23,951 nucleotides of DNA from Nitrospirota bacterium (GTDB lineage Bacteria; Nitrospirota; UBA9217): the NCBI GenBank assembly GCA_963840455.1, contig CAWIYV010000003.1, forward strand, positions 1 to 23,951, written 5' to 3'. The translations under genes and the position numbers were made by a program. Of the stretch, positions 2,359-22,093 are shown one piece after another. Below the pieces are notes generated by a model. It saw only the letters and a list, made by a program, of their open reading frames with translations. It searched no databases and was not told the DNA's origin. Every line of letters starts with the position of its first letter. Position 1 is the stretch's first letter.

Positions 2359-2583
2359 TTCCCGGCAACAAAAACAGTTGAGCATATCACTATGAGCTGT
2401 TTACCGTGGACTGTGGGCTTTTGTAACGGTAGTTCAAAGTATTAATTTTCAACAATGTCCCCAAAAGTCGATTCAAGGTTTATCCCGTGAATGCCGATCA
2501 AACCTGAGAGATTGCCAAAACCGTCTTCCGACTTTACCTCCTAATCGAAGGGTGCGTCCATAACATTGGAAAAGGAATTTTAT

Positions 2584-3204
2584 ATGTTAAAAAAGATGCT
2601 CATTTTCATATTTGCAGTGATCTTTATCCTCCCGATAAGCACGGTTGCCCTTGAGAGAGACGAACAGATAAAAGGTTTTGAAAAGAAGATAAGAGGGATG
2701 CTTAATAAAACCAGAAGTAGTCTTCCCATCATCGACGTGGAGTACCACCATGGTGGGAAGATAGAGATGCAGAGACTCTTGTCCAAAATGGATCAAAACG
2801 CCGTGGCATTAACGTGGCTGGGACCCAATGAAAACCTCGGAAGCGAAGAATCCATAAGGCTGGGTGAATCATACCCTGACCGATTCGTTCCAACAACCGT
2901 TCACGGTGATGGTGAACGATGGCACAGTAGCGACAAGGGTTTTCTTGAAAAGCTGGCAAAGGACGCGCGGTCAGGGAAATATTTTGCCATGGGGGAGTTT
3001 GAGGCGAGGCATTATGCTTCGGACACAAATAATTATGTCTCGTCGGGGGGAGCTTCCCTTGAGACCGATTGGAAAAAGGTGATTGAGGAGTTCCGGACAG
3101 GTTTGTTTTTTTGTAGCCCTCTCTCCCGGCGGATCGTTTTCCGTCAGGCGCGTCAGTCCGCAGATAATATGAAATCCGTCGCTCTCCAATTACCTAATAA
3201 ATGA
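2584..3204 (+). pseudogene. exported amidohydrolase-superfamily (TIM-barrel) protein, internally deleted and frameshifted
   Basis: Signal peptide, then LPIIDVEYHH...MDQNAV...YPDRFVP...AMGEFEARH. The sequence jumps to LETDWKKVIEEF, where restoring one C at ~3093 gives the family-typical FPDRFVF. Too short for a full barrel. Confidence 0.6.
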
Positions 3205-3445
3205 ACAATACCTTATTGTCCCGATAAAATCAAGTAAACACGGTGCAATAATATAATCTGAAAGATGCATTTATCGAAAAGGGAACGCAACCATAGATAA
3301 TAAGAGAAGAGAGAGATCTGCTCGTATCGATGCGCAGTCCTACAATTTACCTTTCACCAGCGAATCCAACGCCGACGGATCAAGGGGACGACCAGAAGCC
3401 GGCCGATGGGTAATGTGATGCCCCCTACCATGCCGCCGATTCGTA

Positions 3446-3474
3446 TTTACAAGTGAATACTGAGGTGTTATAGT
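3446..3474 (+). promoter_or_regulatory. sigma70-type promoter, probably giving a leaderless mRNA
   Basis: TTTACA (3446-3451), 17-bp spacer, TGt-TATAGT extended -10 (3469-3474). ATG 3482 lies 7 nt downstream of the -10. Confidence 0.65.
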
Positions 3475-3481
3475 ATCCCTC

Positions 3482-3901
3482 ATGAAGCATGGAATGATGC
3501 ATAAGATCATGTCCGGGGCTCTGCTCTTTTATTTCGCCCTTTTCGTCATTCCGCCGGTATCCTCTTTTACCCCAACATCGGGAATGTTCGCGACTGCTGA
3601 TGACGGGTCCTCCCTTGAGCAGGATCATCGCCAGACCAGACTCTATCTCGTTGACATCTTCATCTGGCTCAAGCTGAAGGAGTCCCGGCATTCCGTTGCG
3701 ACGGCGATAGCACCGGTTGACCAGGCCGCTGCGGAAAGACCGGCCGTATCTTTTGACTCGCTCACAGCGCTTCTGCCCGACCAGACAGAGCATATGGTCC
3801 GGGTCACCAGGATCCTCCGGCACGCCATTTCCGGGCACCTTTCCCGGACCTCTGATATCTACTTTGCCCGCTCGGGCATCGCTCCACCCTTCCTCGCGTA
3901 G
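3482..3901 (+). CDS. hypothetical protein with N-terminal TM/signal segment and C-terminal SGIAPP motif (candidate arrest peptide/uORF)
   Basis: 139-aa ORF; hydrophobic GALLFYFALFVIPPV; ends FARSGIAPPFLA*; promoter directly upstream. Confidence 0.65.
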   Translation: MKHGMMHKIMSGALLFYFALFVIPPVSSFTPTSGMFATADDGSSLEQDHRQTRLYLVDIFIWLKLKESRHSVATAIAPVDQAAAERPAVSFDSLTALLPDQTEHMVRVTRILRHAISGHLSRTSDIYFARSGIAPPFLA

Positions 3902-4118
3902 CACCCCGCTGTAATCCACGGAAAACAACTGTTTAGACCGTCAGAGCCGACCCGGCTGTCGAATCGTGCTGTCCGCTGCTTGCTTTTCGCACGGGTTAAC
4001 ATGTTCGTTCACGCGCCTACGCGCGGTGACGGATCGTTTCCCGCCGGTCGGAGGCGTGTTATGCAGCGCGCGTTCACGGCTGGACGCGAAGCTCTCTGTG
4101 AGTCTATTAGGAGAATCT

Positions 4119-4613
4119 ATGAAAGCAAAAGAACTGATGCATCCGGTTAACGATTACCTTAGACCGGAATTGACGCTCAAAGAAGCGGTGTCCCTCCTCA
4201 AGAAATGCAGAACCGGAGAGGAGAACATCTGCGTGCGGGCGCTTCCCGTTTTGGACGAGCAGATGAAGTTCGTGGGCCTGTTATCCATGGGAGACATCCT
4301 GAAGGCAATCTGGCCGAAATACATGTCGCTCATGAGCCTCGGCAACTTCGCATGGGACGGAATGGTAGAGGAACTCGCGAGGCGGTCGAAAGACCTGCGC
4401 GTAGAGGACCTCATGACCCGCGAGGTCGTCACGGTGCGCCCGGATTCGCCGCTCATGGAATGCGTGGACCACATGCTAAAGTTCGGCGTGAAGAAGCTAC
4501 CGGTAGTTGATCCAGACGGTGCAGTAGCCGGCATGCTCTACGAGCGGGATCTGTTCTTCGCCATCGTCGGGGCGATCCTGAACGACAGCGGCAAGCCGGA
4601 GGGCAAGCCATGA
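4119..4613 (+). CDS. CBS-pair domain protein
   Basis: AGGAGA RBS before ATG 4119; two CBS motifs (ALPVLDEQMKFVGLLSMGDI; KLPVVDPDGAVAGMLYERDL). Confidence 0.9.
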   Translation: MKAKELMHPVNDYLRPELTLKEAVSLLKKCRTGEENICVRALPVLDEQMKFVGLLSMGDILKAIWPKYMSLMSLGNFAWDGMVEELARRSKDLRVEDLMTREVVTVRPDSPLMECVDHMLKFGVKKLPVVDPDGAVAGMLYERDLFFAIVGAILNDSGKPEGKP

Positions 4614-5977
4614 CGCTGGAATCATCAACACCGGGGATTGCGTTCATCATGGATCTTCCATTCTGGATCGCTACGGTGGTGTTCTTAACCGCCTACGCGA
4701 TGATCATCACCGAAAAGTTGCATAAGACCGTGGTCGCCATATTCGCGGCTTCCCTCATGCTCGTCCTCCGGATCGTGGAGCAGCATGAGGCGTTCCACGT
4801 GGAGGAGCTCGGCGTGGACTGGAACGTGATCATCCTGCTGATCTCCATGATGCTCATCATTAACCTGATGCGGCCGACGGGCGTCTTCGAATATATCGCC
4901 ATCCGGTCCGCCAAGTGGGGCAAGGGGGACCCCTTTCGGATCATGGTGATCTTCGCCCTCGTCACCGCTGTCCTGAGCGCGCTGCTCGACAATGTAACCA
5001 CGGTCCTTCTGATCACCCCCGCGGCCATCCTGATCGCCGACGCCCTTGAGGTCGACGCCGTACCCTACCTCATCTCGTCGGCCCTCGCCTCGAACATCGG
5101 CGGTACGGCGACGCTCATCGGCGACCCGCCGAACCTGATGATCGCGTCGCGTGCCCAGCTGACCTTCATGGACTTCATTGTCAATCTCGCTCCGCTGGTC
5201 ATCATCCTGTTGGTCCTGTACCTTGTTGCCATGAAACTCATCTGGGGACGCAAACTGGTGACCCGCGACGAATTAAAGGAGCGCATCATGCAGATGGATG
5301 AGCGCGAGGCCATCAAGGACCCGGTCATGCTCCGAAAGTCCCTCGCCGTGCTCGTGCTGGTCCTCGCCGGATTCGTCTTCCACGGCATCCTGCATTTCCA
5401 GCCAGCGACTATCGCTCTATTCGGTGCGGGCCTGCTGCTGCTTCTTTCGCGCACAAACGAGCCCCACCACGTACTTTCAGAGGTCGAGTGGCCAACCATC
5501 TTTTTCTTCCTCGGCCTGTTCATCATCGTTGGAGGTGTCGTGAAGGTGGGGCTCATCAAGCGTATGTCCCTCCAGATTCTTGAACTAACGGGTGGCGACC
5601 TGTTTGCAACCTCGATGATCGTCATGTGGTTCTCCGCCATCGCCTCCGCCGTGGTAGACAACATCCCCTATGTCGCCACGATGAACCCTCTGATCGTTGA
5701 TATGGCGCGGCAGCTCTGGCCGGACCTGTCCGGCATCCAGCTTCTGCAGCACCCTGACCTCATGCCTCTCTGGTGGTCCCTGGCGCTGGGCGCCTGTCTG
5801 GGCGGGAACGCAACGATCGTCGGTGCGTCTGCAAACGTGATCGTCGTCGGCCTCTCGGAAAAGGCGGGGAGGAAGATCTCCTTCTGGAAGTTCATGGCCT
5901 ATGGCACTCCGGTTATGATCATGACGGTGGCGGTCTCGTCCCTCTATGTATGGATACGATACTACCTGCTGCGATGA
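4610..5977 (+). CDS. ArsB/NhaD (SLC13-like, IT superfamily) permease
   Basis: Multiple TM helices; motifs SALLDNVTTVLL, ASNIGGTATLIGDPPN, SAVVDNIPYVATM, LGGNATIVGASAN; ATGA overlap with the CBS gene. Confidence 0.9.
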   Translation: MTLESSTPGIAFIMDLPFWIATVVFLTAYAMIITEKLHKTVVAIFAASLMLVLRIVEQHEAFHVEELGVDWNVIILLISMMLIINLMRPTGVFEYIAIRSAKWGKGDPFRIMVIFALVTAVLSALLDNVTTVLLITPAAILIADALEVDAVPYLISSALASNIGGTATLIGDPPNLMIASRAQLTFMDFIVNLAPLVIILLVLYLVAMKLIWGRKLVTRDELKERIMQMDEREAIKDPVMLRKSLAVLVLVLAGFVFHGILHFQPATIALFGAGLLLLLSRTNEPHHVLSEVEWPTIFFFLGLFIIVGGVVKVGLIKRMSLQILELTGGDLFATSMIVMWFSAIASAVVDNIPYVATMNPLIVDMARQLWPDLSGIQLLQHPDLMPLWWSLALGACLGGNATIVGASANVIVVGLSEKAGRKISFWKFMAYGTPVMIMTVAVSSLYVWIRYYLLR

Positions 5978-6032: not shown

Positions 6033-6881
6033 ATGAAAAGAACTATGATACTGATAGCTGCAGCGCTCGGTGCTCTCGTACTGTATGTAGACCTCAGCGG
6101 CGGTAAATTCCGCGATCGTATCGAGCGTGAGCGAGCATCGATCCTCAAGGCCTGCACAGCCGCTCCTGCCATTTCCGCTTCGCAAAAGGGTCTCGCTGAT
6201 CTTCCTGCGCCCGTGCGGAAATATCTTCAGTTTGCGCTGGGGGGGCGAAGCAAGTCGGTCTCATCCGTGCGGATCAAGCAGTCAGGTTCGTTCCGATTAA
6301 GTGAAAAGGATTCTTGGACGCCCGTCACTGCCAACCAGCTGCTGGCCCTTGGAAAACCGGCTTTTGTCTGGCATGCCCGGCTCCAGCCCCATCCCTATGT
6401 TTGGACGGAAAGCCGGGACATACTGCACGAGGGTGTTGCTAAAACGGAGCACCGGCTATACTCGGCCTTCCCATTCCCCCTCAAACGCTTTATCGGCAAG
6501 GCCGCTGATGTCTCCGCTCTCGTCAGATATCTGACCGAAGCGCCCTGGCTCCCGGCAGCTTTGCTCCCGAGCGACCATCTCTCATGGAAGGCCATTGATG
6601 ACCGTACCGCCAGAGCCACTCTGATCTACAATGGATATCGGGTCAGCGCTGATTTCACGTTCAACAGTGAAAGCGAGATCACTCAGGTGACTACACGGGA
6701 CCGCACCTGGAACCGATCGGGCGCCTCCGAGGCGCATCCCTGGATAGCCCGTTATCAGCGGTATGAGCTACACAGCGGGATCAAGGTTCCCATGGAGATG
6801 GAGACGGAGTGGAGTATCAACGGCAAAAGCTTCCCCTACGCCCGGCTGCAGGTCGACACGATTGCATTCGAAGGTATGTAG
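6033..6881 (+). CDS. conserved hypothetical protein, DUF6544/DUF6920-like, N-terminal membrane anchor
   Basis: AAGGAG RBS; motifs LPAPVRKYL, RYLTEAPWLPAALLP, WKAIDDRTARAT, GIKVP. Confidence 0.75.
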   Translation: MKRTMILIAAALGALVLYVDLSGGKFRDRIERERASILKACTAAPAISASQKGLADLPAPVRKYLQFALGGRSKSVSSVRIKQSGSFRLSEKDSWTPVTANQLLALGKPAFVWHARLQPHPYVWTESRDILHEGVAKTEHRLYSAFPFPLKRFIGKAADVSALVRYLTEAPWLPAALLPSDHLSWKAIDDRTARATLIYNGYRVSADFTFNSESEITQVTTRDRTWNRSGASEAHPWIARYQRYELHSGIKVPMEMETEWSINGKSFPYARLQVDTIAFEGM

Positions 6882-6964: not shown

Positions 6965-8941
6965 CTACAGTTTGCCTTTGACGAGGGAATCCACGACCGA
7001 CGGGTCGGCCAGCGTCGACGTGTCGCCGAGCTCGTCGACCTGGTTATGCGCGATCTTCCGCAGGATGCGCCGCATGATCTTGCCGCTCCGCGTCTTGGGC
7101 AGGCCCGGAGCAAACTGCAGCTTGTCCGGCGTGGCGATGGGGCCGATGACTGTCCGCACGTGGCCCACCAGGATCTTCTTCAGGTCATCGCTCGGGGTCT
7201 GGCCTTCCTTGAGCGTCACGTACACGTAGATGCCCTCGCCCTTGATGTCGTGGGGATAGCCCACGACCGCGGCCTCGGCCACGGCGGGATGGCTCACCAA
7301 CGCGGACTCCACCTCGGCGGTGCCGAGGCGGTGGCCGGAAACGTTGATCACATCGTCAACGCGGCCCATGAGCCAGTAGTCCCCGTCCTCGTCGACCCGC
7401 GCGCCGTCGCCGGTGAAGTAAACGCCCGGGTAGGTCGAGAAGTAGACCTCCTTGATGCGCTTGTTCTCGGGATCGCCGTAGGTGCCGCGCAGCATGCCGG
7501 GCCAGGGCTTCTCGATGACGAGCTTGCCGCCCTCGTTTACCTTGGCGGGCGTGCCATCGTCCTTGAGGACACGGGGAACCACGCCGAAGAACGGCCTTGT
7601 CGCCGAGCCGGGCTTGGTGGTCATGGCGCCGGGCAGCGGCGTGATCAGGATGCCGCCCGTCTCGGTCTGCCACCATGTGTCCACGATGGGAAGCTTCTCG
7701 CGGCCCACGTTCTTGTGGTACCACATCCAGGCCTCGGGGTTGATGGGCTCGCCCACGGAGCCGAGAACCTTGAGGCTCGACAGGTCGTGGTTCGTGACCC
7801 ATTTTTCGCCTTCCTTCATCAGGGCGCGGATGGCCGTCGGCGCCGTGTAGAAGATGTTCACGCGGTGCTTGTCAACGATGTCCCAGAACCGGCCCGGGTT
7901 GGGATAGCTCGGGATGCCTTCGAACATGAGGCTCGTGGCGCCGGCGGAGAGCGGTCCGTAGACGATGTAGCTATGGCCCGTCACCCAACCGATGTCGGCG
8001 GTGCAGAAGTGGATGTCCTCATCGTGATAATCGAAGATGTACTTGAAGGACAGGTTGGTATACAGCATGTACCCCGCCGTGGTGTGCAGCACTCCCTTGG
8101 GCTTGCCTGTGGAACCGGACGTATACAGGATGAAGAGCGGGTCCTCGGCGTCCATCTTCTCGGGCTCACAGTACAGGCCGATGCCGGGGGCATTCACTTC
8201 GTCATGCCACCACGTGTCGCGGCCCGGCTCCATCGGCATCTTTCCCGTTGCGCGCTTGACGACAATGACGTTCTTGACCGTCGGGCACTCGTTCAGCGCT
8301 TCGTCTGCGTTTGCTTTGAGCGCCACGAACTTGCCGCCCCGCATGCCTTCATCGGCGGTGATAAGCAGCGACGACTGGCAGTCCTGAATGCGATCGATCA
8401 TGGACTTGGCGGAGAACCCGCCGAACACGATGGAGTGGATGGCGCCGATGCGGGCGCAGGCCAGCATGGAGATCGCGAGCTCCGGGATCATGGGAAGATA
8501 GATCGTCACCCGGTCGCCCTTCTTGATCCCTTTCTTCTTCAGCACGTTGGCGAACTTGTTCACTTCCATGTACAGCTGCTGGTACGTGAAGGTCCGGTAC
8601 TCGCCTCCGTCGGCCTCCCAGATGAGCGCTGCCTTGTTCCGCGTAGCGTTGTTCACGTGCCGGTCGAGGCACTGCACCGACGCGTTCAGTTTCCCGCCCT
8701 GGAACCACTTGATGTAGGGCTTGTGGAAATCGTAGTCCAGCACCTTGTCCCATTTCTTGTACCACGTCAGGTTCTTCTCGGCCTGCTCGGCCCAGAACTT
8801 GTCCGGGTTCTCCACCGACGCCTTGTACATCTTCTCGTACTCGGCCATGCTCTTGATGTGCGCCTTCTCGCTGAAGGCCTTCGACGGAGGAAAGGTCCTT
8901 TTCTCCGTCGATAGTACTTCAATGCCCTTTTTCTCTGACAT
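6965..8941 (-). CDS. acs: acetyl-CoA synthetase (AMP-forming)
   Basis: [47 protein letters not shown]; AGGAGG RBS before ATG 8941. Confidence 0.97.
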
Positions 8942-9038
8942 CGATGCTCCTCCTTCGTATGAACAGGTTAAGGGTCTCAAACCCTTGGAATGGTCCTCAG
9001 TTCCTCTGCGATGCGAAAAGGCAAAAGGCAACCTAGTT

Positions 9039-9128
9039 GCCGCGAAGGCGCCAAGAGCGCGAAGGAACTCCTGAATAATGCGTGTACGTCCCGTAGTTTT
9101 TCTTCGCGTCCTTCGCGTCTTCGCGGTT
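9039..9128. repeat. palindromic CGCGAAG-unit repeat, copy A
   Basis: GCCGCGAAGGCGCCAAGAGCGCGAAG (9039-9064) inverted against CTTCGCGTCCTTCGCGTCTTCGCGGTT (9102-9128). Confidence 0.8.
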
Positions 9129-9170
9129 CAATTCCTTGTCCGCGCTTCATCGGTATAATGCTTTTCCTCG

Positions 9171-10415
9171 CTACCGTTTCTCCACCAGCAGGCCGAGTTT
9201 CCCCGCCAGCCACTTCGTTGTCGTGGCCTGGATCAGGATCGTCATCAGGATGGCGATGAAGGTGAGCGATGCGATCGCCTGGCTGCCCGGGGCTTTCATC
9301 CCGACGAGCATGCCGGCCAGCGCTGCCGGGATAACGCCGGTCTCGCGGGTCCAGCACATGAACAGGAGTTCCTGCAGGCTCCACTTCGCCCTCCGGTCCG
9401 GACCGGCGCAGACAAAGACCGTTATCGGTCGCGCAATGAACATGAAAACGACGATTACCGCTATACCGCCAACAAGGTGTTTGCCGATCAGCCCGAAGTT
9501 CACGTGTGCGCCCAGCAGGATGAAGATGAACATCCGCATGATGAGCGACGTGGTCAGCACGAATTCTTCGAGCCTTTCCTCTTCATGGTCCTCCATGCGG
9601 AATCCGAAGACGTCCTTGTTCTCGAGCACGACACCGAAAACGAACACGGCCATGAACCCGCTGGCATGGAGGCCGTCGGCGCTGAGATACGCGCCGATCA
9701 CCGCCATGAGCGTAACGAGCGGTGCGTACTCCACAAGGAAATCATATTTCTCATGGGCGATCAGGAAGGCGGCGCAGTAGCCCAGCACGCCGCCGGCAAC
9801 GATGCCAAGGACCGACTCCCACAAGAGGCCAAAGAGCGCTTTCCCGATCGAAAAGCTTCCGGAACCCATGGCGATCCCGAGGATCGAGAAGGTGACGATC
9901 GCGCCCATGGCGTCATTGAACGCAGACTCGCTCATCACGGTCTGGGATACCCGGTCCTTGATGTGGATCTGCTTGAAGATGGGGACAAGCGTCGCCGGGT
10001 CCGTGGAGGCGATCGTGGCGCCCAGGAGCAACGAGATAATGAGCGGCGCGCCAAGGATGTAATGGGCCGCGAATCCCGTGATGGCCGTCATGATCAGAAC
10101 GCCTACCGTGGCGATCACGACCAGCGTGATCCACACCTCCCTAAGCACGCTCAGGCGAAGCGTTGCGCCTCCGTCGAAGAGAATGTAGCAGGAACCGAAG
10201 ATCAGGATGATCTGGTTCAGCGCCGAACTTTCGCTGATATCGATCATCGGGAGCACCTCGGGCCCGAGCAGGATCCCGGTCAGCAGGAACACCACCACAT
10301 CCGGGACCTTGAGCCATTGCGCCAGCAGGCCCGACAGCGAGCCCGCGGCAAGGATGATGCCGAAGACCAGCAGAACGTGTTTTGCGCTTTCGATCGAGGA
10401 GGAGGATTCCATCAT
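9171..10415 (-). CDS. NhaP-type cation:proton antiporter (CPA1)
   Basis: ILFDGG, ASTDPATLVPIF, ESAFNDAMG motifs; many TM helices; start at ATG 10415 or 10412 after GAGGGA. Confidence 0.92.
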   Translation of the reverse strand: MMESSSSIESAKHVLLVFGIILAAGSLSGLLAQWLKVPDVVVFLLTGILLGPEVLPMIDISESSALNQIILIFGSCYILFDGGATLRLSVLREVWITLVVIATVGVLIMTAITGFAAHYILGAPLIISLLLGATIASTDPATLVPIFKQIHIKDRVSQTVMSESAFNDAMGAIVTFSILGIAMGSGSFSIGKALFGLLWESVLGIVAGGVLGYCAAFLIAHEKYDFLVEYAPLVTLMAVIGAYLSADGLHASGFMAVFVFGVVLENKDVFGFRMEDHEEERLEEFVLTTSLIMRMFIFILLGAHVNFGLIGKHLVGGIAVIVVFMFIARPITVFVCAGPDRRAKWSLQELLFMCWTRETGVIPAALAGMLVGMKAPGSQAIASLTFIAILMTILIQATTTKWLAGKLGLLVEKR

Positions 10416-10518
10416 TCCCTCAACACAGAACGAGCACCGTCCCGCGATAGGGAAGCGATGCATCGTGCAACAGATACGAGTATAGCAGAAACAGGGCGCT
10501 ACCGCCCCTTCGTGCCGG

Positions 10519-10830
10519 TCATTTTGCCAGGGGTGGAGGTCCGAAGAACAGGATCAATGCGATCCGGATGATCACAATAAAGAAGAACGAAAAGAACGGT
10601 ATGCACCCGCCGATGGCCCCCCACATGGTCCCCTGCTTTTCCGGCGGGACTGCCGCAAACGGCACGATGGCCCGCACCACCCGGTACACCGGGTCCGTGA
10701 CCTTCCGGAACAGGCTTGAGATGACATTATCTTTTGCGGCAGAGATCAACGTCACCACCACCCTTCCCAGGATCATCCACATGACAAAGGAGAGTGTGTA
10801 GTTAATTATTTGAAATACGTATATGTTCAT
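10519..10830 (-). CDS. YggT-like small membrane protein
   Basis: Two hydrophobic segments flanking NVISSLFRKVTDPVYRVVRAIVP, a YggT-like TDP motif. Confidence 0.7.
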   Translation of the reverse strand: MNIYVFQIINYTLSFVMWMILGRVVVTLISAAKDNVISSLFRKVTDPVYRVVRAIVPFAAVPPEKQGTMWGAIGGCIPFFSFFFIVIIRIALILFFGPPPLAK

Positions 10831-10878
10831 GGATTATTTGAATTCCCTTTGCCCCTGCATGGATAGATAAGACTATGT

Positions 10879-10965
10879 CACCACGAAGTCGCGAAGAGCA
10901 CGAAGAAAATTCTCTGTCTGAAACCAAACGACATAAATCTTCGCAACCTTTGCGCCTTGGCGGTT
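10879..10965. repeat. palindromic CGCGAAG-unit repeat, copy B
   Basis: CACCACGAAGTCGCGAAGAGCACGAAG (10879-10905) inverted against CTTCGCAACCTTTGCGCCTTGGCGGTT (10939-10965). Confidence 0.75.
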
Positions 10966-10992
10966 CTAAAGTTACCTGGCAAGATTCCTTTC

Positions 10993-11035
10993 AGAGAAAG
11001 AAGGCAGGCATCCCCGCCCATGCGGGGATGCCTGC
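10993..11035 (-). terminator. intrinsic terminator after the symporter gene
   Basis: Perfect 14-bp stem GCAGGCATCCCCGC/GCGGGGATGCCTGC with a 4-nt loop, followed on the minus strand by CTTCTTTCTCT. Confidence 0.75.
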
Positions 11036-11052
11036 GAATATGAACAATATGC

Positions 11053-13050
11053 TTACTCTTGAGCTGCCTGCGACGCACCCTTCGGGATGCGGACGCTCTC
11101 GACGAAGTCCTGCAGCTCCTGGCTCGGCGGCGCCGTCATGCGCGACACCGCATAGTTTATGATGAATCCGAGCGGAATGCCGAAGAGACCGGACGAGATG
11201 GTCTTGATGCCCCAGATGTCGAGGCCATAGAACCGGCTGCCGATCATGTAGCCGACGCAGGAAAGGAAGCCTACCCACATTCCGGCGAGCGCGCCTGCTT
11301 TGTTGGCCCGTTTGTCCCAGATGCCCATGACCAGCGCCGGGAAGAACGAGGCCGCGGCGATGGAGAATGCCCAGGCAACGAGTTCCACGATGATGGTGAG
11401 CTTGAAGGTCGCCACCCACGCTGCGATAAGTGCCGTGACCACCAGCAGGGTGCGCGAGATCGCCAGCCGCCTGGTGATCGACGCGTGCTGGTCGATCATC
11501 TTGTAGTACAGGTCGTGCGACAGCGCGTTCGAGATGGTCAGAAGCAGACCGTCTGCTGTGGACAGGGCCGCAGCCAGACCGCCTGCTGCCACGAGGCCGG
11601 AGATCACATACGGCAGACCCGCGATCTCGGGCATGGCCAGCACGATCGCATCAGGCAGGATCGTGAACTCATAGAACTGCAAGATGCCGTCGCCGTTGAT
11701 GTCCGTGAAGGACACCAGGCCGACCTTGCCCCAGTTCGCGATCCACGATGGCAGCTTGTCGATCGGCAGTCCGATGACGTTGTGCAGCACTTCATACCTG
11801 CCGAAAGCGGCGACCGCCGGCGCAGTGAAGTAGAGCAGGAATATGAAGAACAGCGACCATCCCACGGACATACGCGCGTCCTTCACCGACGGAACGGTGT
11901 AGTACCGCATCAGGATGTGAGGCAGGCCTGCGGTGCCCACCATGAGGCAGAAGGTGAGCGCCAGCATGTTCTTGGCGTCAAGCCGAGCGAACGGCTCGAG
12001 GTAAGGCTTGATCGGCTTGGACTTGCCTGCCGCAGTTCCCTTGGCAGCGGTCCACTTTTCCTTCGCTTCGTCAGCGGTCTTCGGGAGCGCAGCCAGAGCT
12101 TTCTCAAGCTTAGCTTTATCATCAGTGTTCGCAGTTGCCGCGATCTTTGCGTTCAGGTCAGCCTTCTTTGCGTCAAGGCTGCCGGGCAGACCCTTGATGT
12201 CAGCATCGAGATCAGCGGCCTTTTGCTTCCAGAGGCCCATGACCTCCTGTTCCTTCGGGCTCGCATTGATCGCCTTCTCCTGAGTGTCGATCTTCTGGAG
12301 CGCCTGACCATAGGCGATCTCGGAGATCGGATTGCCCGTGACCTTGTAGGACATCACTGTAGGCGGGATCAGGTAGGCCACGATCAGAATGATGTACTGG
12401 GCCACCTGTGTCCAGGTGACGGCCTTCATACCGCCGAGCATGGAGCAGACCAGGATGCCCGCGAGGCCCACGAACACGCCGACGGAGAAGTCGAGGTTCA
12501 GGAACCGGCCCATGATGATGCCCACGCCCGTTACCTGCGCGATCAGGTAAGTAAAGGACGCCGTGATGGCGGCGATGATGCCGATGGAGCGGGCAGCGTT
12601 GCCGCCATACCGGGCGCCGAGGAAGTCAGGAATGGTGTACTGGCCGAACTTCCGGAGGTAGGGGCCGAGGAACACGGCGAGCAGCACATAGCCGCCGGTC
12701 CAGCCCATGATGTAGGCGAGGCCGTCATAACCGAGGCCGAAGATGGTGCCGGCCATGCCGATGAACGAGGCCGCGGACATCCAGTCCGAGCCGGTCGCCA
12801 TGCCGTTGAAGAACGCCGGCACCGAGCGGCCGGCAACATAGTATTCCGAGACCTTCGCCGTGCGCGACATGATGCCGATCGCGGCGTAGAGACCTATGGT
12901 CACACCCATGTACACGTAGCCGATGGCCTTCGGGGACATGCCGAATGCAGCCTCGCTTATCCCGAGCGCGATCACGAATACGATGAACCCGACGGTATAG
13001 ATCCCGTAGATCTTGCCAAGGTTGTCAAGAAATCCGCCTTTAAAAGCCAT
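11053..13050 (-). CDS. actP: sodium:solute symporter, ActP/VC_2705-type acetate permease
   Basis: NGMATGSDWMSAASFIGMAG, GTAGLPHILMRYYT, AAALSTADGLLL; neighbours acs and DUF4212. Confidence 0.88.
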   Translation of the reverse strand: MAFKGGFLDNLGKIYGIYTVGFIVFVIALGISEAAFGMSPKAIGYVYMGVTIGLYAAIGIMSRTAKVSEYYVAGRSVPAFFNGMATGSDWMSAASFIGMAGTIFGLGYDGLAYIMGWTGGYVLLAVFLGPYLRKFGQYTIPDFLGARYGGNAARSIGIIAAITASFTYLIAQVTGVGIIMGRFLNLDFSVGVFVGLAGILVCSMLGGMKAVTWTQVAQYIILIVAYLIPPTVMSYKVTGNPISEIAYGQALQKIDTQEKAINASPKEQEVMGLWKQKAADLDADIKGLPGSLDAKKADLNAKIAATANTDDKAKLEKALAALPKTADEAKEKWTAAKGTAAGKSKPIKPYLEPFARLDAKNMLALTFCLMVGTAGLPHILMRYYTVPSVKDARMSVGWSLFFIFLLYFTAPAVAAFGRYEVLHNVIGLPIDKLPSWIANWGKVGLVSFTDINGDGILQFYEFTILPDAIVLAMPEIAGLPYVISGLVAAGGLAAALSTADGLLLTISNALSHDLYYKMIDQHASITRRLAISRTLLVVTALIAAWVATFKLTIIVELVAWAFSIAAASFFPALVMGIWDKRANKAGALAGMWVGFLSCVGYMIGSRFYGLDIWGIKTISSGLFGIPLGFIINYAVSRMTAPPSQELQDFVESVRIPKGASQAAQE

Positions 13051-13051
13051 T

Positions 13052-13333
13052 TTATTCTTCCTCCTCTTCCACGCCGTATTCCTTGTCAGCCGCGTTCATC
13101 TTGAAGGCATACCAGAAGATCAGGATCACGAAGATGATCAGCGAACCCTGCGCACCCATGTAGTAGCCGAAGGGGAATCCGGCAATCACGATGTTGTTCA
13201 ACAGCGGCGTGAAGAAGATCGCCACGTAGGTCACCACGAACCAGATGACCATGATGATCGTCGTGAGCCGTATGTTGAACGCCCAGTACGCTTTTAACTT
13301 CTCTTTATCAAGGCCTTTTAATTCTTTAGCCAT
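13052..13333 (-). CDS. DUF4212/DUF485 small symporter-associated membrane protein
   Basis: AYWAFNIRL...GFPFGYYMGAQGSLIIFV...DKEYGV; AAGGAGG RBS; 1 nt upstream of the symporter. Confidence 0.9.
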   Translation of the reverse strand: MAKELKGLDKEKLKAYWAFNIRLTTIIMVIWFVVTYVAIFFTPLLNNIVIAGFPFGYYMGAQGSLIIFVILIFWYAFKMNAADKEYGVEEEEE

Positions 13334-13422
13334 ACTGCTTCCTCCTTACACTATGATAGGATGTAGATCAGTTAATCCTGGATACTGTACTGCAAACGTT
13401 TTTTCCCTCTCACCTCCTCCCT

Positions 13423-14091
13423 TTATGGTTTCGCGATCCGCAGCAGGTCCTTCACGGTCCTGACGCCGAGCCCCGGCAACAGGCTTAAGAACCTCTGAAA
13501 GAGCTGCGCCGTTATGAACGCATCCATGAGCGCGTTGTGCGCCGCGGAAACCGGTATATGATATTTTTTAGCCATGCTGAACAGGTCCTTGTTCTCCTCA
13601 CAGGTATCGTACTGACTGCGCGATCCCCTGCTGTGGTCCTGCATCCATCCATGGATCTGCAGGGTGTCCGCAACAGGCTGTGGGAACTTTGTATTATGAA
13701 GCCGTTTCATCTCCTTGTTCAGGAAGCCCAGGTCCAGGGACAGGAAGTGCCCCACCACTACTGCGCCCTCACAGAACTTTAACAGGTCCCCGATCACTTC
13801 CCCGATGACTCGTTTGTCTGCCACGTCCGACGGCGTGATGCCGTGGACCACGATGCTTGCGGACCTGAGCGCCGTCTCGGGGCTCACCATCTCATAGAAG
13901 GTCTCGCCCAGAAGGATCCTGCCGCCCTGCATCCCCACAGCCCCTACCGAGACGATGGAGTCCTTCCTGAAGTCCAGCCCCGTGAGCTCCGTGTCCATGA
14001 CCACATATCGGGCCGCTTCAATGGGCACCGCAAGGTCGACGCCGGTGTTAACGGCCGGCCTGCGCATGAACAGCCCCATCAGGTTGTTCAC
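13423..14091 (-). CDS. DEDDh 3'-5' exonuclease-family protein
   Basis: ExoI VVMDTELTG, ExoII GHFLSLDLGFL, ExoIII HNALMDA; GTGA overlap with the upstream gene. Confidence 0.92.
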   Translation of the reverse strand: MNNLMGLFMRRPAVNTGVDLAVPIEAARYVVMDTELTGLDFRKDSIVSVGAVGMQGGRILLGETFYEMVSPETALRSASIVVHGITPSDVADKRVIGEVIGDLLKFCEGAVVVGHFLSLDLGFLNKEMKRLHNTKFPQPVADTLQIHGWMQDHSRGSRSQYDTCEENKDLFSMAKKYHIPVSAAHNALMDAFITAQLFQRFLSLLPGLGVRTVKDLLRIAKP

Positions 14092-16004
14092 CCCCCGACC
14101 ATGCCGGGCCCGTACTGGTTGATGATGCCGTCCTGCACCGACGTGATGACCTGGAACGATTCCTTCAGGATCCGCTTTTCCAGGTTGCTCAGGTTTCTTG
14201 GATTGATGAAATTGTCGGGCGGCTCTCCGCGCTCGATCTGCCCCACCTGGTGGTGGATCCGGAGCAGGGTGATGAACTCGAAGGCCTGCGCCAGTTCGCT
14301 CCCCATGGTGTCAATGGTGGGGTGTTTGCCCTTCATAGACTCGATGCGCTCGAGCGTCGAGGTCTCGCTGACGCCGGACTCGAGAGAAAGGAGGCGGACG
14401 ATGTCCACGAGCGGCCCGATGCCCCGCAACTTGAGGTTCAGCTCGTCCTTGTGCTCGCCGCCCTTCTCCACGATGAAGGTGCGGAAAAAGCCGAGCGGCG
14501 GCCGGTTCCTCGTCGTCGCCGCTGCCATGTGCGCGAGGAACAGGTTCTGCCCCTTCAGGCTCTTCATCAGGAACTCGCGCAGTTCGATGCCCAGGGCCTC
14601 CTCGCCGTAGAGCGGGCGGAAGTCGAAGAAGATCAGCGACCGCAGGATCGCGTCGGGTGTGGGGTGATGGATCCAGCCTGCGAAGTGCTTCTTCCAGACC
14701 GAAAGCGGCTGGCACCACTTGGGATTGCTCGCCATGTAATCCGCCGGGCAGAGCGGGAAGCCGCACTTCACCAGGCCGTCGCGCACATAGAGCGCGAAGG
14801 CGGAAAAGTACTTTTGCGCCGCCTCTTCCTGGACCGCGCCCGCTGGGTCCGCATAGACGATGGCGTTGTCCTGGTCGGTCTTGAAGGTCTGCTCTTTCCG
14901 GCCCTCGCTCCCGAAGGAGAGCCAGCAATAGGGCACCGGCGGCTTCCCGAATTTCCGTTCGGCGAACTCCAGCACTTTCCGCACCAGCCGGTCGTTCAGT
15001 TCGGCGATGATCTTGGTGATGTTGCTCGCCCGGGCTCCCTCCTTCAGCAGGAGTCCCACCACCCGGTTGATCTTTGCCGAGACCGGCACCAGCCCGTCGA
15101 TGCTCTCCTGGCTTTCCAGGTCCTTGGCAAAGGAGAGCGGGGACGAACCCTGCAGCAGCATGAGGTCGTGGTTCGAAAGGACCCCCTTGAGCCTCCCCTC
15201 CTTGATCACCAGGATGTGGTGGATGTTGTGCTTGATCATCTTGAGGACCGCTTCAAAACAGTAGTCCTTCACGTCCACGCGGATGAGCGGCAGGGTCATG
15301 ATGTCCTTGACCGGGTCGTTCACGCTCCGCCCGCGGGCAACCACCTTTTCCCGGAGATCGCGGTCCGTTATGATGCCCGCGGGAAGTCCGTTCCGGTCCA
15401 TGACGATCAGGCAGCTGATACGGTTCTTCGACATCTCCAGCGCGGCATCCCGGATCGTGGTGTCCGCCTCGACCGTGACCACGCCGGTGGTCGCGATATC
15501 GCCCACGGGCGTCGTGAACAGGAGATGGTCGCTGCTTCCGTAGAAGAGGCTCTTCGAGTGCATCTCCCGGTAGACCTTGTCCACGTACTTCGTGAAATGG
15601 CTCTGGAGAAAGTATTCGGTGAACGCCGGATTGGATTCGATCAGTTCAAGGATCTTTTCCCGCCCCAGGAGAAAACAGATGGTGTCCTCGAGGGCAACGA
15701 CCGTGGTCTTCTGGCGGTCCTGGCCCATGAGGGAGATGAGGCCGAAGGTGTCGCCCTCACCTCTATGGTCGATGATCACTTCTTCGCCGTTCTCGGTCCG
15801 CACCGAGACTATGACGCCGCCTTTCTTGATGATCCTGAGTGAGTCGCTCGCGGGGGTGTCCTGTTTCAGGATGACCGCGTCCTTGGGATAGAACTCGATG
15901 GTGAGGTTCTCCGCGACAGCCCGCAGGTCCGCTTCCTCCAGGAACTGGAAGGGGGGCACGTTCTTCAAAAATACAACGATGTCCTCTGCAATGACGCTGG
16001 GCAT
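14088..16004 (-). CDS. cNMP-binding + CBS-pair + DUF294 nucleotidyltransferase protein
   Basis: N-terminal cNMP fold (PPFQFL...GDTFG), CBS pair (GIITDRDLR), NTase motif FGSEGRKEQTFKTDQDN, DUF294_C (PPLGFFRTF...NLKLRGIGPLVD). Confidence 0.93.
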   Translation of the reverse strand: MPSVIAEDIVVFLKNVPPFQFLEEADLRAVAENLTIEFYPKDAVILKQDTPASDSLRIIKKGGVIVSVRTENGEEVIIDHRGEGDTFGLISLMGQDRQKTTVVALEDTICFLLGREKILELIESNPAFTEYFLQSHFTKYVDKVYREMHSKSLFYGSSDHLLFTTPVGDIATTGVVTVEADTTIRDAALEMSKNRISCLIVMDRNGLPAGIITDRDLREKVVARGRSVNDPVKDIMTLPLIRVDVKDYCFEAVLKMIKHNIHHILVIKEGRLKGVLSNHDLMLLQGSSPLSFAKDLESQESIDGLVPVSAKINRVVGLLLKEGARASNITKIIAELNDRLVRKVLEFAERKFGKPPVPYCWLSFGSEGRKEQTFKTDQDNAIVYADPAGAVQEEAAQKYFSAFALYVRDGLVKCGFPLCPADYMASNPKWCQPLSVWKKHFAGWIHHPTPDAILRSLIFFDFRPLYGEEALGIELREFLMKSLKGQNLFLAHMAAATTRNRPPLGFFRTFIVEKGGEHKDELNLKLRGIGPLVDIVRLLSLESGVSETSTLERIESMKGKHPTIDTMGSELAQAFEFITLLRIHHQVGQIERGEPPDNFINPRNLSNLEKRILKESFQVITSVQDGIINQYGPGMVGG

Positions 16005-17875: not shown

Positions 17876-19252
17876 TCACTCCGTGCTCAGGAAGATCTTC
17901 CCGGGATTCAGGATATTGTTCGGGTCCAGCGCCCGCTTGATCCGTCTCATGGCCTCGAGGGCTTGTTCCCCGGCTTCCAGCGGCAGGAAGGGCGCCTTGG
18001 TGATACCGATGCCGTGTTCCCCGGAAATGCTTCCCTGCATCCGGAGGACGGCTGCGAAGATCTCCTTCACCGCAAGCTCGGCCTGCGGCCGCTCCTCTTC
18101 CTCTAGCATGATGTTCACATGGATGTTCCCGTCCCCTGCATGGCCGAAGCAGACGATCAGGAGGCCATAGCGCTTCGCAATGTCCTGTACCTCGGCAAGG
18201 ATGTCCGGCACCCTTGCCGGGGGGACAACGATGTCCTCGTTGATCTTCCGGGGCTTGATAGTATACAGCGCAGGGGAGATGGCTCGCCGCAGCTTCCAGA
18301 TCCTATCCTGTTCACGTTTATCGGTCGCCCGCGTGACCGTAATTGCGCCCGCTTCCCGGCAGGCGCGCTCAAGGGCATCGGCCTCCAACGCCGTGGCCCG
18401 CGGAGATCCATCCACTTCAGCGATGACCATGGCGCCTGCGCCATGGGAAACGTCCTCTTTGAGATAGGTCTCGACGGCGCGGATTGCTCCGGAATCGATG
18501 AGTTCAAGAGCCCGGGGAAGGATGCGGCCTTCAGATATCTTTGAGACCGCGATAGCGGCGCTTCGAATGTCGGGAAAGAACGCAGAGAGGGTCTCGACGC
18601 TCTCCGGCCGCGGCAGGAGCCGCACGATGATCTTCGTCACCACCCCCAGCGTCCCCTCGGACCCGACGATGAGCCGCGTGAGGTCGTAGCCGGCCACGCT
18701 CTTGAGCGTGCGCGATCCGGTCTCGATGATCTCGCCCGTCGGCAGGACCACCTCAAGGCCGAGGACATAATCCCGCGTCACGCCGTACTTGACGGCGCGA
18801 AGCCCGCCGGCGCATTCGGCGATGTTCCCTCCCAGGGTGCAGAACTGCTGGCTTGCCGGGTCAGGCGGATAGAACAGCCCCCGCGCCTCGACCTCCCGCT
18901 GGAGGTCGCCGGTGATGACGCCCGGCTCCACGATTGCCATGCGGTTCCGTTCGTCGATCTCGAGGATGCGGTTCATGCGCTCGAAGGACAGGACCAGCCC
19001 TCCCCGGACCGGCACCGAGCCGCCGGACATGCCTGTCCCCGCCCCGCGCGGCACGACCGGGAAACGCCTACGGTTGGCGAGGAGGAGTATCTGAGAAACT
19101 TCCCGGGCGGTCGCCGGACGGGCGACGGCTGCGGGAAGGGATGCAGTCCGGGTCGCGTCGTAAGAATAAACAACCAGTTCTTCGGGACCGGTGAACAGGT
19201 GGGCGGGGCCGACGATGGCCGCGAGCTCCTTGAGGACCAACGGATCAAGCAT
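17876..19252 (-). CDS. FAD-linked oxidase, GlcD/D-lactate dehydrogenase family
   Basis: PRGAGTGMSGG, FYPPDPAS, GGLRAVKYGVTRDYV, GHAGDGNIH, SGEHGIG, DPNNILNPGK. Confidence 0.93.
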   Translation of the reverse strand: MLDPLVLKELAAIVGPAHLFTGPEELVVYSYDATRTASLPAAVARPATAREVSQILLLANRRRFPVVPRGAGTGMSGGSVPVRGGLVLSFERMNRILEIDERNRMAIVEPGVITGDLQREVEARGLFYPPDPASQQFCTLGGNIAECAGGLRAVKYGVTRDYVLGLEVVLPTGEIIETGSRTLKSVAGYDLTRLIVGSEGTLGVVTKIIVRLLPRPESVETLSAFFPDIRSAAIAVSKISEGRILPRALELIDSGAIRAVETYLKEDVSHGAGAMVIAEVDGSPRATALEADALERACREAGAITVTRATDKREQDRIWKLRRAISPALYTIKPRKINEDIVVPPARVPDILAEVQDIAKRYGLLIVCFGHAGDGNIHVNIMLEEEERPQAELAVKEIFAAVLRMQGSISGEHGIGITKAPFLPLEAGEQALEAMRRIKRALDPNNILNPGKIFLSTE

Positions 19253-20825
19253 AGACGCGGTAATTGATGTCCGGGAAGAGGTTGTCCTTATACTCGATGT
19301 CGCTCAGCCAGGCCTCGTCGATGCGGTTCGCCCGGATGTCGTCGTAGAGCCGCGTGAACCGGAGGACGTGGTCCTGCGTCCGTTTGACCGCGTATTCCAC
19401 GTGGCTGCCGGTCTTCATGATGAAGGCCCAGTCCGAGCTCTGCGCGAGCAGGAGTTCCCGGGCCGCCTGGTTCAGGGCGCGCCGGAGCAGGCCGTCGGCG
19501 CTCGGGAACTGGCGCGCCAGCTCTACCATCCGGTCTGCCGCCGTATGCAGATGACGGTAGATCCAGTCATTGGTCCCATTGAGCCAGACCTCGGCGTAGC
19601 CCTTGAAGCCCCAGCTCGACAGGGACGGCGTGGCTACCTGGCAGGTGGGGTTCTCGGCAAGGTATTCCATGGGCGTCGTCAGCTTGATGGTCTTCTGGTC
19701 ATAGGCCATCTTCCGCATCAGGAAGTTGATCCAGTCCGGCCCTTCGAACCACCAGTGCCCGTACAGCTCGGCATCGTAGGGCGCGACGATGATCGGCTTC
19801 CGGTCCTGCACAATGCCTGCCAGCCACTCGATCTGCTTCTCCCGGTTGAACATGAAGTTCGCCGCCTGGTCGGCCGCCCGGTCGAGCGCCCACTGCCGGA
19901 CATAGGGGTCCTTGTGGTTCGACTTGCCGGTGATCTTGTAGTACTTGATCCCCAGGTTCACGCGCACGCCGTCGGCGGGGAGATAGGGCCTGACGTAATC
20001 GTAATCCAGGTCGAAGCCGACGTCGCGGTAGAACTCCCGGTAGTTGTAGTCCCCGGGATACCCCTCGACAGAGCTCCAGACCTGCTTCGACGACTCGATG
20101 TCCCGGCCGAAGGCGGCCACGCCCGACTTGCAGCAGATCGGCGCGTATACGCCGTACTTGGGCCGCGGGGACGCATGGAAGACACCGTGGGAATCGGTGA
20201 AGAAGTAGCGGAGGCCCGCCTCCTTCAGGAACTCGTCAAGGCCTTCGAAGTAGCCGCACTCCGGCAGCCAGATGCCCCGCGGGGGCCTTCCGAGGTGCTT
20301 GGTGTGCTGTTCGACGGCGACCTGGATCTGGGCGCGCACGGCGTTCGGATTCAGCATGAGCGGCAGGAACCCGTGGGTCGCGCCGCAGGTGATGATCTCC
20401 AGCTTGCCCAGGTCCTGGAACTTCTTGAAGGCCGTGACGAGGTTCCTCCCGTACTTTTCCTCGAAGACGTACCGCGAGTTCCGGAAGATGTCCCGGTACA
20501 TGTGGGCGATAGGGTTGAACTCAGGCTGATCCTTCGTGCGCACGATCTCCTTCTCGGCGAGCTCGATCAACTTGGTGATGTGCCGGACGTAGCGGTGCTG
20601 GAGCAGCGGGTCCGTGAGCATGCCGATGAGCGTGGGCGTCAGGCTCATGGTGATGCGGAAGTCCACGCCGTCGTTCACCAGTCCGTCGTAGACATTGATG
20701 AGCGGGATGTAGGTCTCAGTGATCGCCTCGAAGAGCCAGTCCTCTTCCAGGAACTGGTCGTACTCGGGATGCCGCACATACGGCAGGTGGCTGTGCAGCA
20801 CCAGCGCAAGATAACCCTTTTCCAT
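19245..20825 (-). CDS. GH57 1,4-alpha-glucan branching enzyme (DUF1957)
   Basis: LVLHSHLPYVRHP, GIWLPECGY (nucleophile Glu), APYDAELYGHWWFEG (acid/base Asp), LLAQSSDWAFI. Confidence 0.95.
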   Translation of the reverse strand: MEKGYLALVLHSHLPYVRHPEYDQFLEEDWLFEAITETYIPLINVYDGLVNDGVDFRITMSLTPTLIGMLTDPLLQHRYVRHITKLIELAEKEIVRTKDQPEFNPIAHMYRDIFRNSRYVFEEKYGRNLVTAFKKFQDLGKLEIITCGATHGFLPLMLNPNAVRAQIQVAVEQHTKHLGRPPRGIWLPECGYFEGLDEFLKEAGLRYFFTDSHGVFHASPRPKYGVYAPICCKSGVAAFGRDIESSKQVWSSVEGYPGDYNYREFYRDVGFDLDYDYVRPYLPADGVRVNLGIKYYKITGKSNHKDPYVRQWALDRAADQAANFMFNREKQIEWLAGIVQDRKPIIVAPYDAELYGHWWFEGPDWINFLMRKMAYDQKTIKLTTPMEYLAENPTCQVATPSLSSWGFKGYAEVWLNGTNDWIYRHLHTAADRMVELARQFPSADGLLRRALNQAARELLLAQSSDWAFIMKTGSHVEYAVKRTQDHVLRFTRLYDDIRANRIDEAWLSDIEYKDNLFPDINYRVYA

Positions 20826-20846
20826 GTTTCCTCCGGATGATCCGTG

Positions 20847-20953
20847 ACCACGGAGACAAGGAGGGCGCGGAGAAGCGGTCCGGCCTGCTTGCCGGCTTAC
20901 TTTTTTTTAGCAGGCCTGTCGACCCTCCTCCGCACCTCGGTGCCTCGGTGGTG
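20847..20953. repeat. palindromic CACGGAG-unit repeat, copy D
   Basis: ACCACGGAGACAAGGAGGGCGCGGAG (20847-20872) inverted against CTCCGCACCTCGGTGCCTCGGTGGTG (20928-20953). Confidence 0.7.
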
Positions 20954-21034
20954 AGATAGGGTTTTGAAAAGAAAAGCCCATCCACAGGGGATGGACTCTC
21001 GCATGAACCAGGCGGCGTCAGTGACCGTCGTGCC

Positions 21035-22021: not shown

Positions 22022-22064
22022 CTCAAACCCCCTTTCGATAGTTCTCTTCCTCTTAGTTATTTTC

Positions 22065-22093
22065 ACTATAACACAAAAAACCGCGATTATCAA
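22065..22093 (-). promoter_or_regulatory. sigma70-type promoter for the DUF4912-GH57 operon
   Basis: Minus strand TTGATA (22093-22088), 17-bp spacer, TGt-TATAGT (22070-22065). Confidence 0.65.

Follow-up and report, generated by a model that had tools for sequence, protein, structure and literature searches.

A family of exported leader peptides ending in SG[I/L][S/A]PP as candidate export-coupled ribosome arrest peptides ahead of ion-transport and osmolyte operons in Nitrospirota

The 139-aa open reading frame at 3482-3901 of the window (the whole 23,951-nt stretch of DNA that was analysed) is a real gene and belongs to an unnamed family. Its product probably acts in cis as an export-coupled ribosome arrest peptide (monitoring substrate), whose arrest motif would be new; from the sequence comparisons described below we assign this reading a probability of roughly 0.6. 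That the peptide is an arrest-type regulator of some kind is highly likely, while for osmotic or salt stress as the input we would give even odds. As far as sequence goes, the anatomy is that of a SecM/VemP-like monitoring peptide outside the RAPP class. The features of the locus are as follows:

3446..3474 (+), sigma70-type promoter: -35 box TTTACA at 3446-3451, 17-nt spacer, TG extension and -10 box TATAGT at 3469-3474 (10/12 matches)
3482-3901 (+), upstream open reading frame (uORF) for a candidate exported arrest peptide of 139 aa, supported by homolog searches and purifying selection
3482..3565 (+), residues 1-28, in which LL-x-YF and P-x-S are conserved; predicted to be a Sec signal peptide (pattern, model)
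3641..3694 (+), residues 54-71, conserved DxxxW helix, 64-81 residues before P135
3695..3832 (+), residues 72-117, linker or spacer of free sequence and fixed length (pN close to pS in the L010 paralogs; pLDDT <50)
3872..3889 (+), S131-G-I-A-P-P136, candidate arrest motif with the core SG[I/L][S/A]PP, three codons before the stop
3878..3946 (+), stretch rich in C and poor in G that includes the Pro codons and the stop and extends 45 nt past it; it may be a rut site, an anti-Shine-Dalgarno (anti-SD) or both (suggestive only)
3902..4118 (+), intergenic region of 217 nt with the SD AGGAG of the CBS gene at 4109-4113; no Rfam match
4119..4613 (+), tandem-CBS protein of 164 aa when read from the ATG at 4119; its gene is the one next to the uORF and putatively regulated (PF00571, E 2e-26)
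4610..5977 (+), IT-superfamily (CitMHS/ArsB/NhaD-like) permease whose start overlaps the CBS stop
6033..6881 (+), DUF6920/DUF6544 protein, whose gene closes the operon and is found after the permease in 7/7 CBS-type loci

The protein-coding status of the frame is backed by its comparison with the closest relative, at locus L002 (pS 0.30, pN 0.09). Homolog searches yielded 8 and then 20 homologs, and later 57 clusters at 50% identity, 71 distinct proteins altogether, and all members with a known source are Nitrospirota. The frame ends in SGIAPP-FLA-stop, exactly as an earlier, sequence-only reading of this DNA had described for a 139-aa frame with SGIAPP three codons ahead of the stop; the start given there, position 3446, is that of the -35 box, and the promoter ends 7 nt before the ATG of the uORF. 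Searches of Pfam, NCBIfam and PDB with family members gave no credible match to the uORF, a weak dihydroneopterin-aldolase match being discarded as chance (E 0.009, one helix only), and plasmid searches returned generic CBS matches and none to the uORF.

The motif xGx[S/A]PP lies 0-6 residues from the C-terminal end in 68 of the 71 homologs, with exactly three trailing residues in 46. Its commonest forms are SGISPP (29) and SGLSPP (15), and of the three homologs lacking it one is truncated and two have SDxSPP instead. Because the original search profile contained the motif, matches were rescored with a profile of residues 1-75 that is blind to the C-terminus. Hereby, the motif was found in 60 of 62 significant matches and in 40 of 42 outside the training set, which confirms the conservation among homologs that the earlier proposal of an arrest peptide had called for. 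The Arg of RSGIAPP, in contrast, drops out of the core motif, since R130 is present in only 61% of homologs. With a top-residue frequency of 0.88 the motif is the most conserved region of the peptide (residues 13-28, 0.67; DxxxW helix, residues 51-70, 0.52; linkers, 0.22-0.27). All six motif codons vary synonymously, so that selection acts on the peptide; a function of the motif as an RNA element is ruled out.

A distant class of about 189 aa (P0074-P0084 and P0086), which carries a KKKRA motif and a second hydrophobic segment, ends in SGL[S/A]PP in 14 of 15 new matches. In the Atlas, the top match to the family is an unnamed 52-member cluster whose commonest phylum is Thermodesulfobacteriota (phylum known for 7), and the range of the family may therefore extend beyond Nitrospirota. 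The nearest Pfam-named look-alikes there, judged by language-model features and taken as a lead only, are SecM (score 0.94; 140 of 256 features shared) and DUF2946/CzcI clusters (119 of 256), as compared to typically 170 for true family members.

The N-terminal segment retains L15 in 95%, Y17 in 92%, F18 in 91%, P25 in 100% and S27 in 98% of homologs. Since its hydrophobicity is only moderate (best 19-residue Kyte-Doolittle value 1.63) and it ends in V/L/I-S-S/A, we favour a cleavable Sec signal peptide, with cleavage likely after residue 28, over an anchor. The hydrophobic segment noticed earlier is thus present, but resembles a cleavable signal more than a transmembrane anchor. The linker behind it, which had been called long and polar, is indeed long and of free sequence, but it is not featureless: it holds a conserved helix with the consensus L-x-L-x-D-x-x-x-W-x-x-L-K (D58 98%, W62 95%, L65 83%, K66 74%). 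W62 and P135 are 68-78 residues apart (median 73; 65/71 measurable homologs, at 20-30% identity). The expectation that only the N-terminal segment and the terminal motif would be conserved has accordingly to be widened, both being kept together with a third element at a fixed distance from the prolines. An amphipathic membrane-surface helix was ruled out on account of the low hydrophobic moment (mean 0.18), the helix being evenly hydrophobic. Between the two L010 paralogs the linkers show pN values of 0.58-0.60 at a pS of 0.55, and the three conserved blocks pN values of 0.12-0.20. An AlphaFold2 model contains two helices (3-22 and 44-75) and no globular domain (pLDDT 60, pTM 0.25). Across the 71 homologs there is no conserved Cys column, and the sole His column reaches 46%.

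With the monitoring substrates of the Sec/YidC machinery (SecM, MifM, VemP, Apd) the family shares an N-terminal signal or membrane segment, predicted here from hydropathy, helix 3-22 and the cleavage pattern, and a short C-terminal motif at a set distance from upstream elements. In VemP, Arg74-Trp86 contacts the translocon in the arrested state (PMC7793623) and the P-site residue is Gln156 (PMC5449182). By our computation the contacting stretch lies 70-82 residues from Gln156, against 64-81 residues between the family helix and P135. VemP resembles the family in being an exported uORF that stalls three codons ahead of its stop (at Q156 of 159; the family stall is putative), in having a conserved element about 71 residues upstream, which in VemP acts at the translocon, and in responding to salinity through its own export, to which we liken the putative stress response of the family. 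That salinity response is already known and is indirect. Unlike the family, VemP has an arrest window, H138-Q156, without Pro-Pro and controls secDF2 via an SD stem-loop, whereas the family carries SG[I/L][S/A]PP before ion-transport and osmolyte genes and has no sequence match in PDB or Pfam.

The RAPP/RGPP peptides SecM, ApdA, ApdP and RQH are likewise small, begin with a localisation signal, carry x-small-P-P near the C-terminal end and stand first in the operon. The family differs from this class in having I or L at the Arg position, an invariant Ser-Gly upstream of it and no sec or yidC gene behind it; the SecM Pfam model does not match the uORF, and there is no homology to a named RAPP/RGPP member in Pfam, NCBIfam or PDB. 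The Arg, which in that class stands three residues before the A-site Pro (R-small-P-P or RAGP), is described as irreplaceable in RAP(P) arrest peptides (PMC12992588), while position 133 of the 68 motif-bearing homologs is I, L, S, V, T, C, N or W and never R. Arrest is therefore not transferable from the RAP(P) family, and EF-P may be able to resolve a plain di-proline. The earlier suggestion of a non-RAPP, non-Sec variant (SGxxPP) agrees with this lack of Arg at position 133 and with the absence of Sec/YidC genes behind the peptide at the ten loci described below. Among peptides outside the RAPP class, uA_LPPP of Planctomycetota, the other non-RAPP motifs of Fujiwara 2024 and LudP are also lineage-restricted exported uORFs with a C-terminal motif of their own, uA_LPPP even with a Leu before the prolines. 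All of them are described before secA, secDF or yidC, whereas the present family has [I/L][S/A]PP behind Ser-Gly instead of L-P-P-P, belongs to Nitrospirota and is not followed by secA.

Between 2300 and 4300 there are 6 promoter-like sites (shuffles, 2.0 ± 1.4), of which TTTACA-17-(TG)TATAGT ranks first; it predicts a transcription start site at or just before the ATG. A sigma70-type site ending 5-9 nt before the ATG is found at 8 of 10 family loci as compared to 3 of 91 control genes, the controls being crude gene calls, many of them operon-internal; the remaining two loci have a good -10 box at the same position, judged by eye. At these 8 loci the promoter geometry is consistent with a leaderless mRNA, and SD-like pairing upstream of the uORF is absent at 8 of 10 loci (-3.0 kcal/mol or weaker). 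Because the window and L002 carry GAGGTG 14 nt before the ATG, within the promoter spacer, leaderless initiation, which the sequence-only reading had already called probable, is taken here as probable and not as established. An element GATTC(C/G)T(A/G)TT runs into the -35 box at five of the ten loci (window, 3438-3451; L002; both L010 copies; L009), with a near match in the upstream region of L001, and could be a regulator site or an extended promoter signature common to these salt-stress operons.

Genomic contexts were taken from one DNA-pattern scan of GTDB, which returned 12 loci with 8 in-frame members, all Nitrospirota; L003, L007, L008 and L011 were dropped as out-of-frame chance matches. 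Since the motif was part of the pattern, which also demanded a TAT codon, the scan gives a partial view of the family and no test of motif conservation. The 8 members, one more core member in their flanks and the window make up 10 core loci, and the flanks also gave one distant member. The homologs beyond these loci, about 75 in number, derive for the most part from contigs of metagenomes. At all 10 core loci the gene next to the peptide has the same orientation and a good SD (-6.6 to -12.3 kcal/mol); the gap between them measures 82-336 nt, a range shared by all 11 loci of the mRNA set. The trio CBS-permease-DUF6920 directly follows the uORF at six core loci, and at L005 with one exported-protein gene in between. 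Further along these CBS-type operons, or next to them, are genes for Ca/Na or Na/H exchangers and an MPGP-family phosphatase, for a MOFRL protein of the glycerate-kinase-like type, for GT2 and GpgS-like synthases, and for a protein with a mechanosensitive-channel helix. At L010 each of the two copies precedes a LapA-domain gene, followed by MOFRL-MscS-DUF5752-TreT-TPS/TPP or by MPGP-GT2, and the L012 uORF precedes DUF3124 and a Kef-type CPA2 antiporter. Two genomes hold two paralogous uORFs before different operons (L010, 253-759 and 7884-8363; L005 and L012). On a midpoint-rooted tree the peptide is kept while the downstream operon appears to have been switched at least two times; where the tree splits deepest, the CBS context is found on either side, and the other two contexts thus look like later switches.

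Hence, the contexts number three and not ten independent cases, and two of the three that carry the osmotic theme come from one gene island. Genes of the sec/yidC group directly follow at none of the 10 core loci, and copper genes do not occur downstream. The proposal that a transporter is controlled in place of Sec/YidC genes therefore stands as regards the latter, but needs enlarging, since the putatively regulated genes also include those for osmolyte synthesis. The motif itself is probably not strictly salt-specific, because the distant SGLSPP class, seen in context once (L001:3325-3996 (-), after a CBS-permease operon), precedes an unrelated 547-aa exported protein and an exosortase-like gene.

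The CBS gene and an ArsB/NhaD-superfamily permease do follow the uORF as had been noted, but the permease misses the NhaD cut-off (NF038006, 36.7 vs 80 bits; TIGR00775, 58.6 vs 577) and falls below the cut-off of every listed NCBIfam family, so that the name NhaD is not established. The constant place of the DUF6920/DUF6544 protein behind the permease suggests a role in ion or osmotic homeostasis. As a side observation, the CBS protein (4119-4613) has a weak likeness, at 32.5 bits against a cut-off of 125, to the model for CbpB, a c-di-AMP-binding protein.

Taken as an export-coupled arrest peptide, the uORF product might work as follows. The ribosome would start at the 5' AUG and the signal peptide would engage SecYEG during translation. 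Elongation would pause at SG[I/L][S/A]P-P; if the RAPP peptides are a guide, P135 would then probably occupy the P site. At this point the DxxxW/Lys helix would lie in or just past the translocon and serve as the checkpoint setting the pull needed for release, comparable to Arg-85 of VemP. Salt or osmotic stress would slow export and keep the ribosome on the C-rich stretch, where it would block Rho loading and/or free the downstream SD, and the ion-transport and osmolyte genes would be expressed. A wider version is more tentative, and we hold it to be possible at odds below even: the peptide may be a portable, leaderless osmo-sensor that uses its own passage through SecYEG as a gauge of the envelope state (turgor, ionic strength, ion-motive force), a helix-gated device duplicated and placed before operons for Na+/K+ transport, mechanosensitive channels and trehalose or glucosylglycerate.

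The arrangement of genes bears on an alternative that we consider unlikely, namely that the uORF encodes an ordinary small exported or membrane protein, a transporter subunit or chaperone, whose C-terminus is a binding or degradation signal and which does not stall ribosomes. Signal peptide and helix are indeed conserved beyond what generic export needs, and the gene travels with one operon at 7 of the 10 loci. Yet no folded domain is predicted, the linkers of the protein are near-neutral although their length is kept, its partners change while the peptide does not, and it is always the first gene, with a long gap in place of coupling.

The helix could alternatively be a sensor. If the nascent DxxxW helix bound a cation, or responded directly to the ionic strength of the periplasm or to lipid packing, the peptide would be a ligand-sensing arrest peptide in the manner of CutF and CruR, for which export rate is not decisive. 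D58 and W62 are nearly invariant and the downstream genes handle ions and osmolytes. CruR and CutF (DUF2946) are uORFs of the same size, roughly 120-145 aa; they contain a sensor motif, are rich in Pro at their end and are followed by a long gap. These two, however, have CxxC/CxxxC copper sites and head copper operons, i.e. non-Sec homeostasis genes, while the family is not followed by copper or heavy-metal operons and gave no DUF2946/CzcI match. The missing Cys column and the weak His column, the single acidic residue, which makes a poor ion site, and the even, non-amphipathic hydrophobicity of the helix further speak against ligand binding, and we regard it as quite improbable.

The leader peptide MgtL is cytoplasmic and Pro-rich, belongs to an ion transporter and is osmotically responsive. 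A pause uncoupled from export, be it EF-P- or prolyl-tRNA-dependent as in MgtL or a constitutive Rho shield, with a signal peptide that only clears the product, would fit the di-proline end of the motif ([S/A]-P-P), the C-rich stretch beneath the ribosome and the tight coupling of transcription and translation that a leaderless start may bring, but it is very unlikely, as it leaves unexplained why the DxxxW helix keeps a distance of 68-78 residues from the motif and why S131-G132 is invariant.

How an export-coupled pause would reach the downstream genes is the weakest part of the model. In line with the earlier statement that no clear terminator separates the uORF from the CBS gene, a strict scan found neither a terminator nor a promoter in the 217-nt gap. 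A looser script gave one weak hairpin with a U run here and such hairpins in 4 of 10 gaps, which were not counted as evidence; an intrinsic attenuator was rejected, the strict scan being negative in the gaps of the window and L010a. An independent promoter before the CBS gene, which had been named as an argument against control by the uORF, was not seen in the window: lax 8/12 promoter matches occur in 3 of 10 gaps and not in this one. No Rfam family reaches its gathering score in the gap, so that no known riboswitch is present, and a snoRNA match (E 8.1) is chance. The gap folds no better than shuffles (z 0.34), and a conserved RNA hairpin in it is unsupported by folds, shuffles and pairing controls.

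For the anti-SD model, the downstream SD pairs mainly with the ribosome-footprint codons in 6 of 11 folds, and masking these codons clearly raises SD accessibility in four. In the 332-nt fold of the window the SD does not pair with the footprint and masking gives no clear gain; in a shorter fold the SD does pair, with codons 134-135. Cognate versus swapped SD/footprint pairs gave p 0.056 and synonymous recoding a mean z of -0.44, and the anti-SD model is thus not established. The region around the stop is C-rich and G-poor at all 11 loci, which is partly forced by the Ser and Pro codons. In the 45 nt after the stop the skew of C over G is 0.17, and 25 control genes that have a free 3' gap give -0.08 (p 0.003, for loci that are not independent and of which 2 of 11 are negative). 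The stretch 3878..3946 is suggestive of a rut-like and/or anti-SD element that a stalled ribosome would cover. For CruR, regulation is described to proceed via Rho termination at a C>G bubble and a stalled ribosome on cruR blocks Rho (PMC9426467), and CutF is described as acting via an SD stem-loop (PMC9973294; bioRxiv 2025.02.05.636593). The resemblance of the family's stretch to the cruR bubble is suggestive only; in this window, Rho shielding appears somewhat more likely than SD unmasking.

Arrest peptides controlling non-Sec genes are already known (CruR, CutF, Streptomyces RAPP peptides). What appears new here, from the comparisons above, are the motif, the three-block ruler, the conserved leaderless-type start and the putative osmoprotection regulon. 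In the full-text literature searched, none of the matches listed describes the motif, and none links an arrest peptide with osmotic genes, antiporter genes, leaderless mRNA or Nitrospirota. SG[I/L][S/A]PP is not among the motifs given in PMC10987492, and the SGLSPP/SGISPP family is absent from those of its supplements that were searched; the searched supplements of PMC12992588 do not contain it either, the GLSPP rows among those listed being unrelated RAPP proteins. The two large arrest-peptide surveys were restricted to regions upstream of sec/yidC or to RAPP/RGPP, and a non-RAPP family before other genes would therefore have escaped them by design. The short motif without Arg offers a direct test of an independent alternative to the RAPP geometry at the peptidyl-transferase centre. 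Force-dependent release outside protein-localisation pathways is left open in the discussion of Fujiwara et al. (PMC12992588), and the fixed spacer together with the osmotic-stress operons makes it testable. If the wider reading as an osmo-sensor is true, a force-sensing arrest peptide would control osmoprotection directly, instead of the Sec machinery or a metal pathway. The family would also supply a first candidate post-transcriptional salt-stress switch in Nitrospirota.

The surroundings of the operon add some minor observations. At 2566-3204 (+) the window has a 212-aa frame with an export-signal-like start and no Pfam match, while the corresponding site of L002 holds a divergent cluster of a Na+/H+ exchanger, a Ca/Na exchanger and MPGP; the region upstream of the promoter has thus been rearranged. 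The cluster at 6965-16004 (-), which adjoins the uORF operon in L004 and L009 too, includes a CPA1 Na+/H+ exchanger (Pfam) and YGGT, together with what we take to be an acetyl-CoA synthetase, an ActP-like symporter, an exonuclease and a CBS-nucleotidyltransferase. Farther on, at 19245-22093 (-), lies a gene for a DUF4912 protein whose N-terminal domain is HeH/Rho_N-like and whose linker is rich in Lys and Ala; a presumably GH57-like gene follows.
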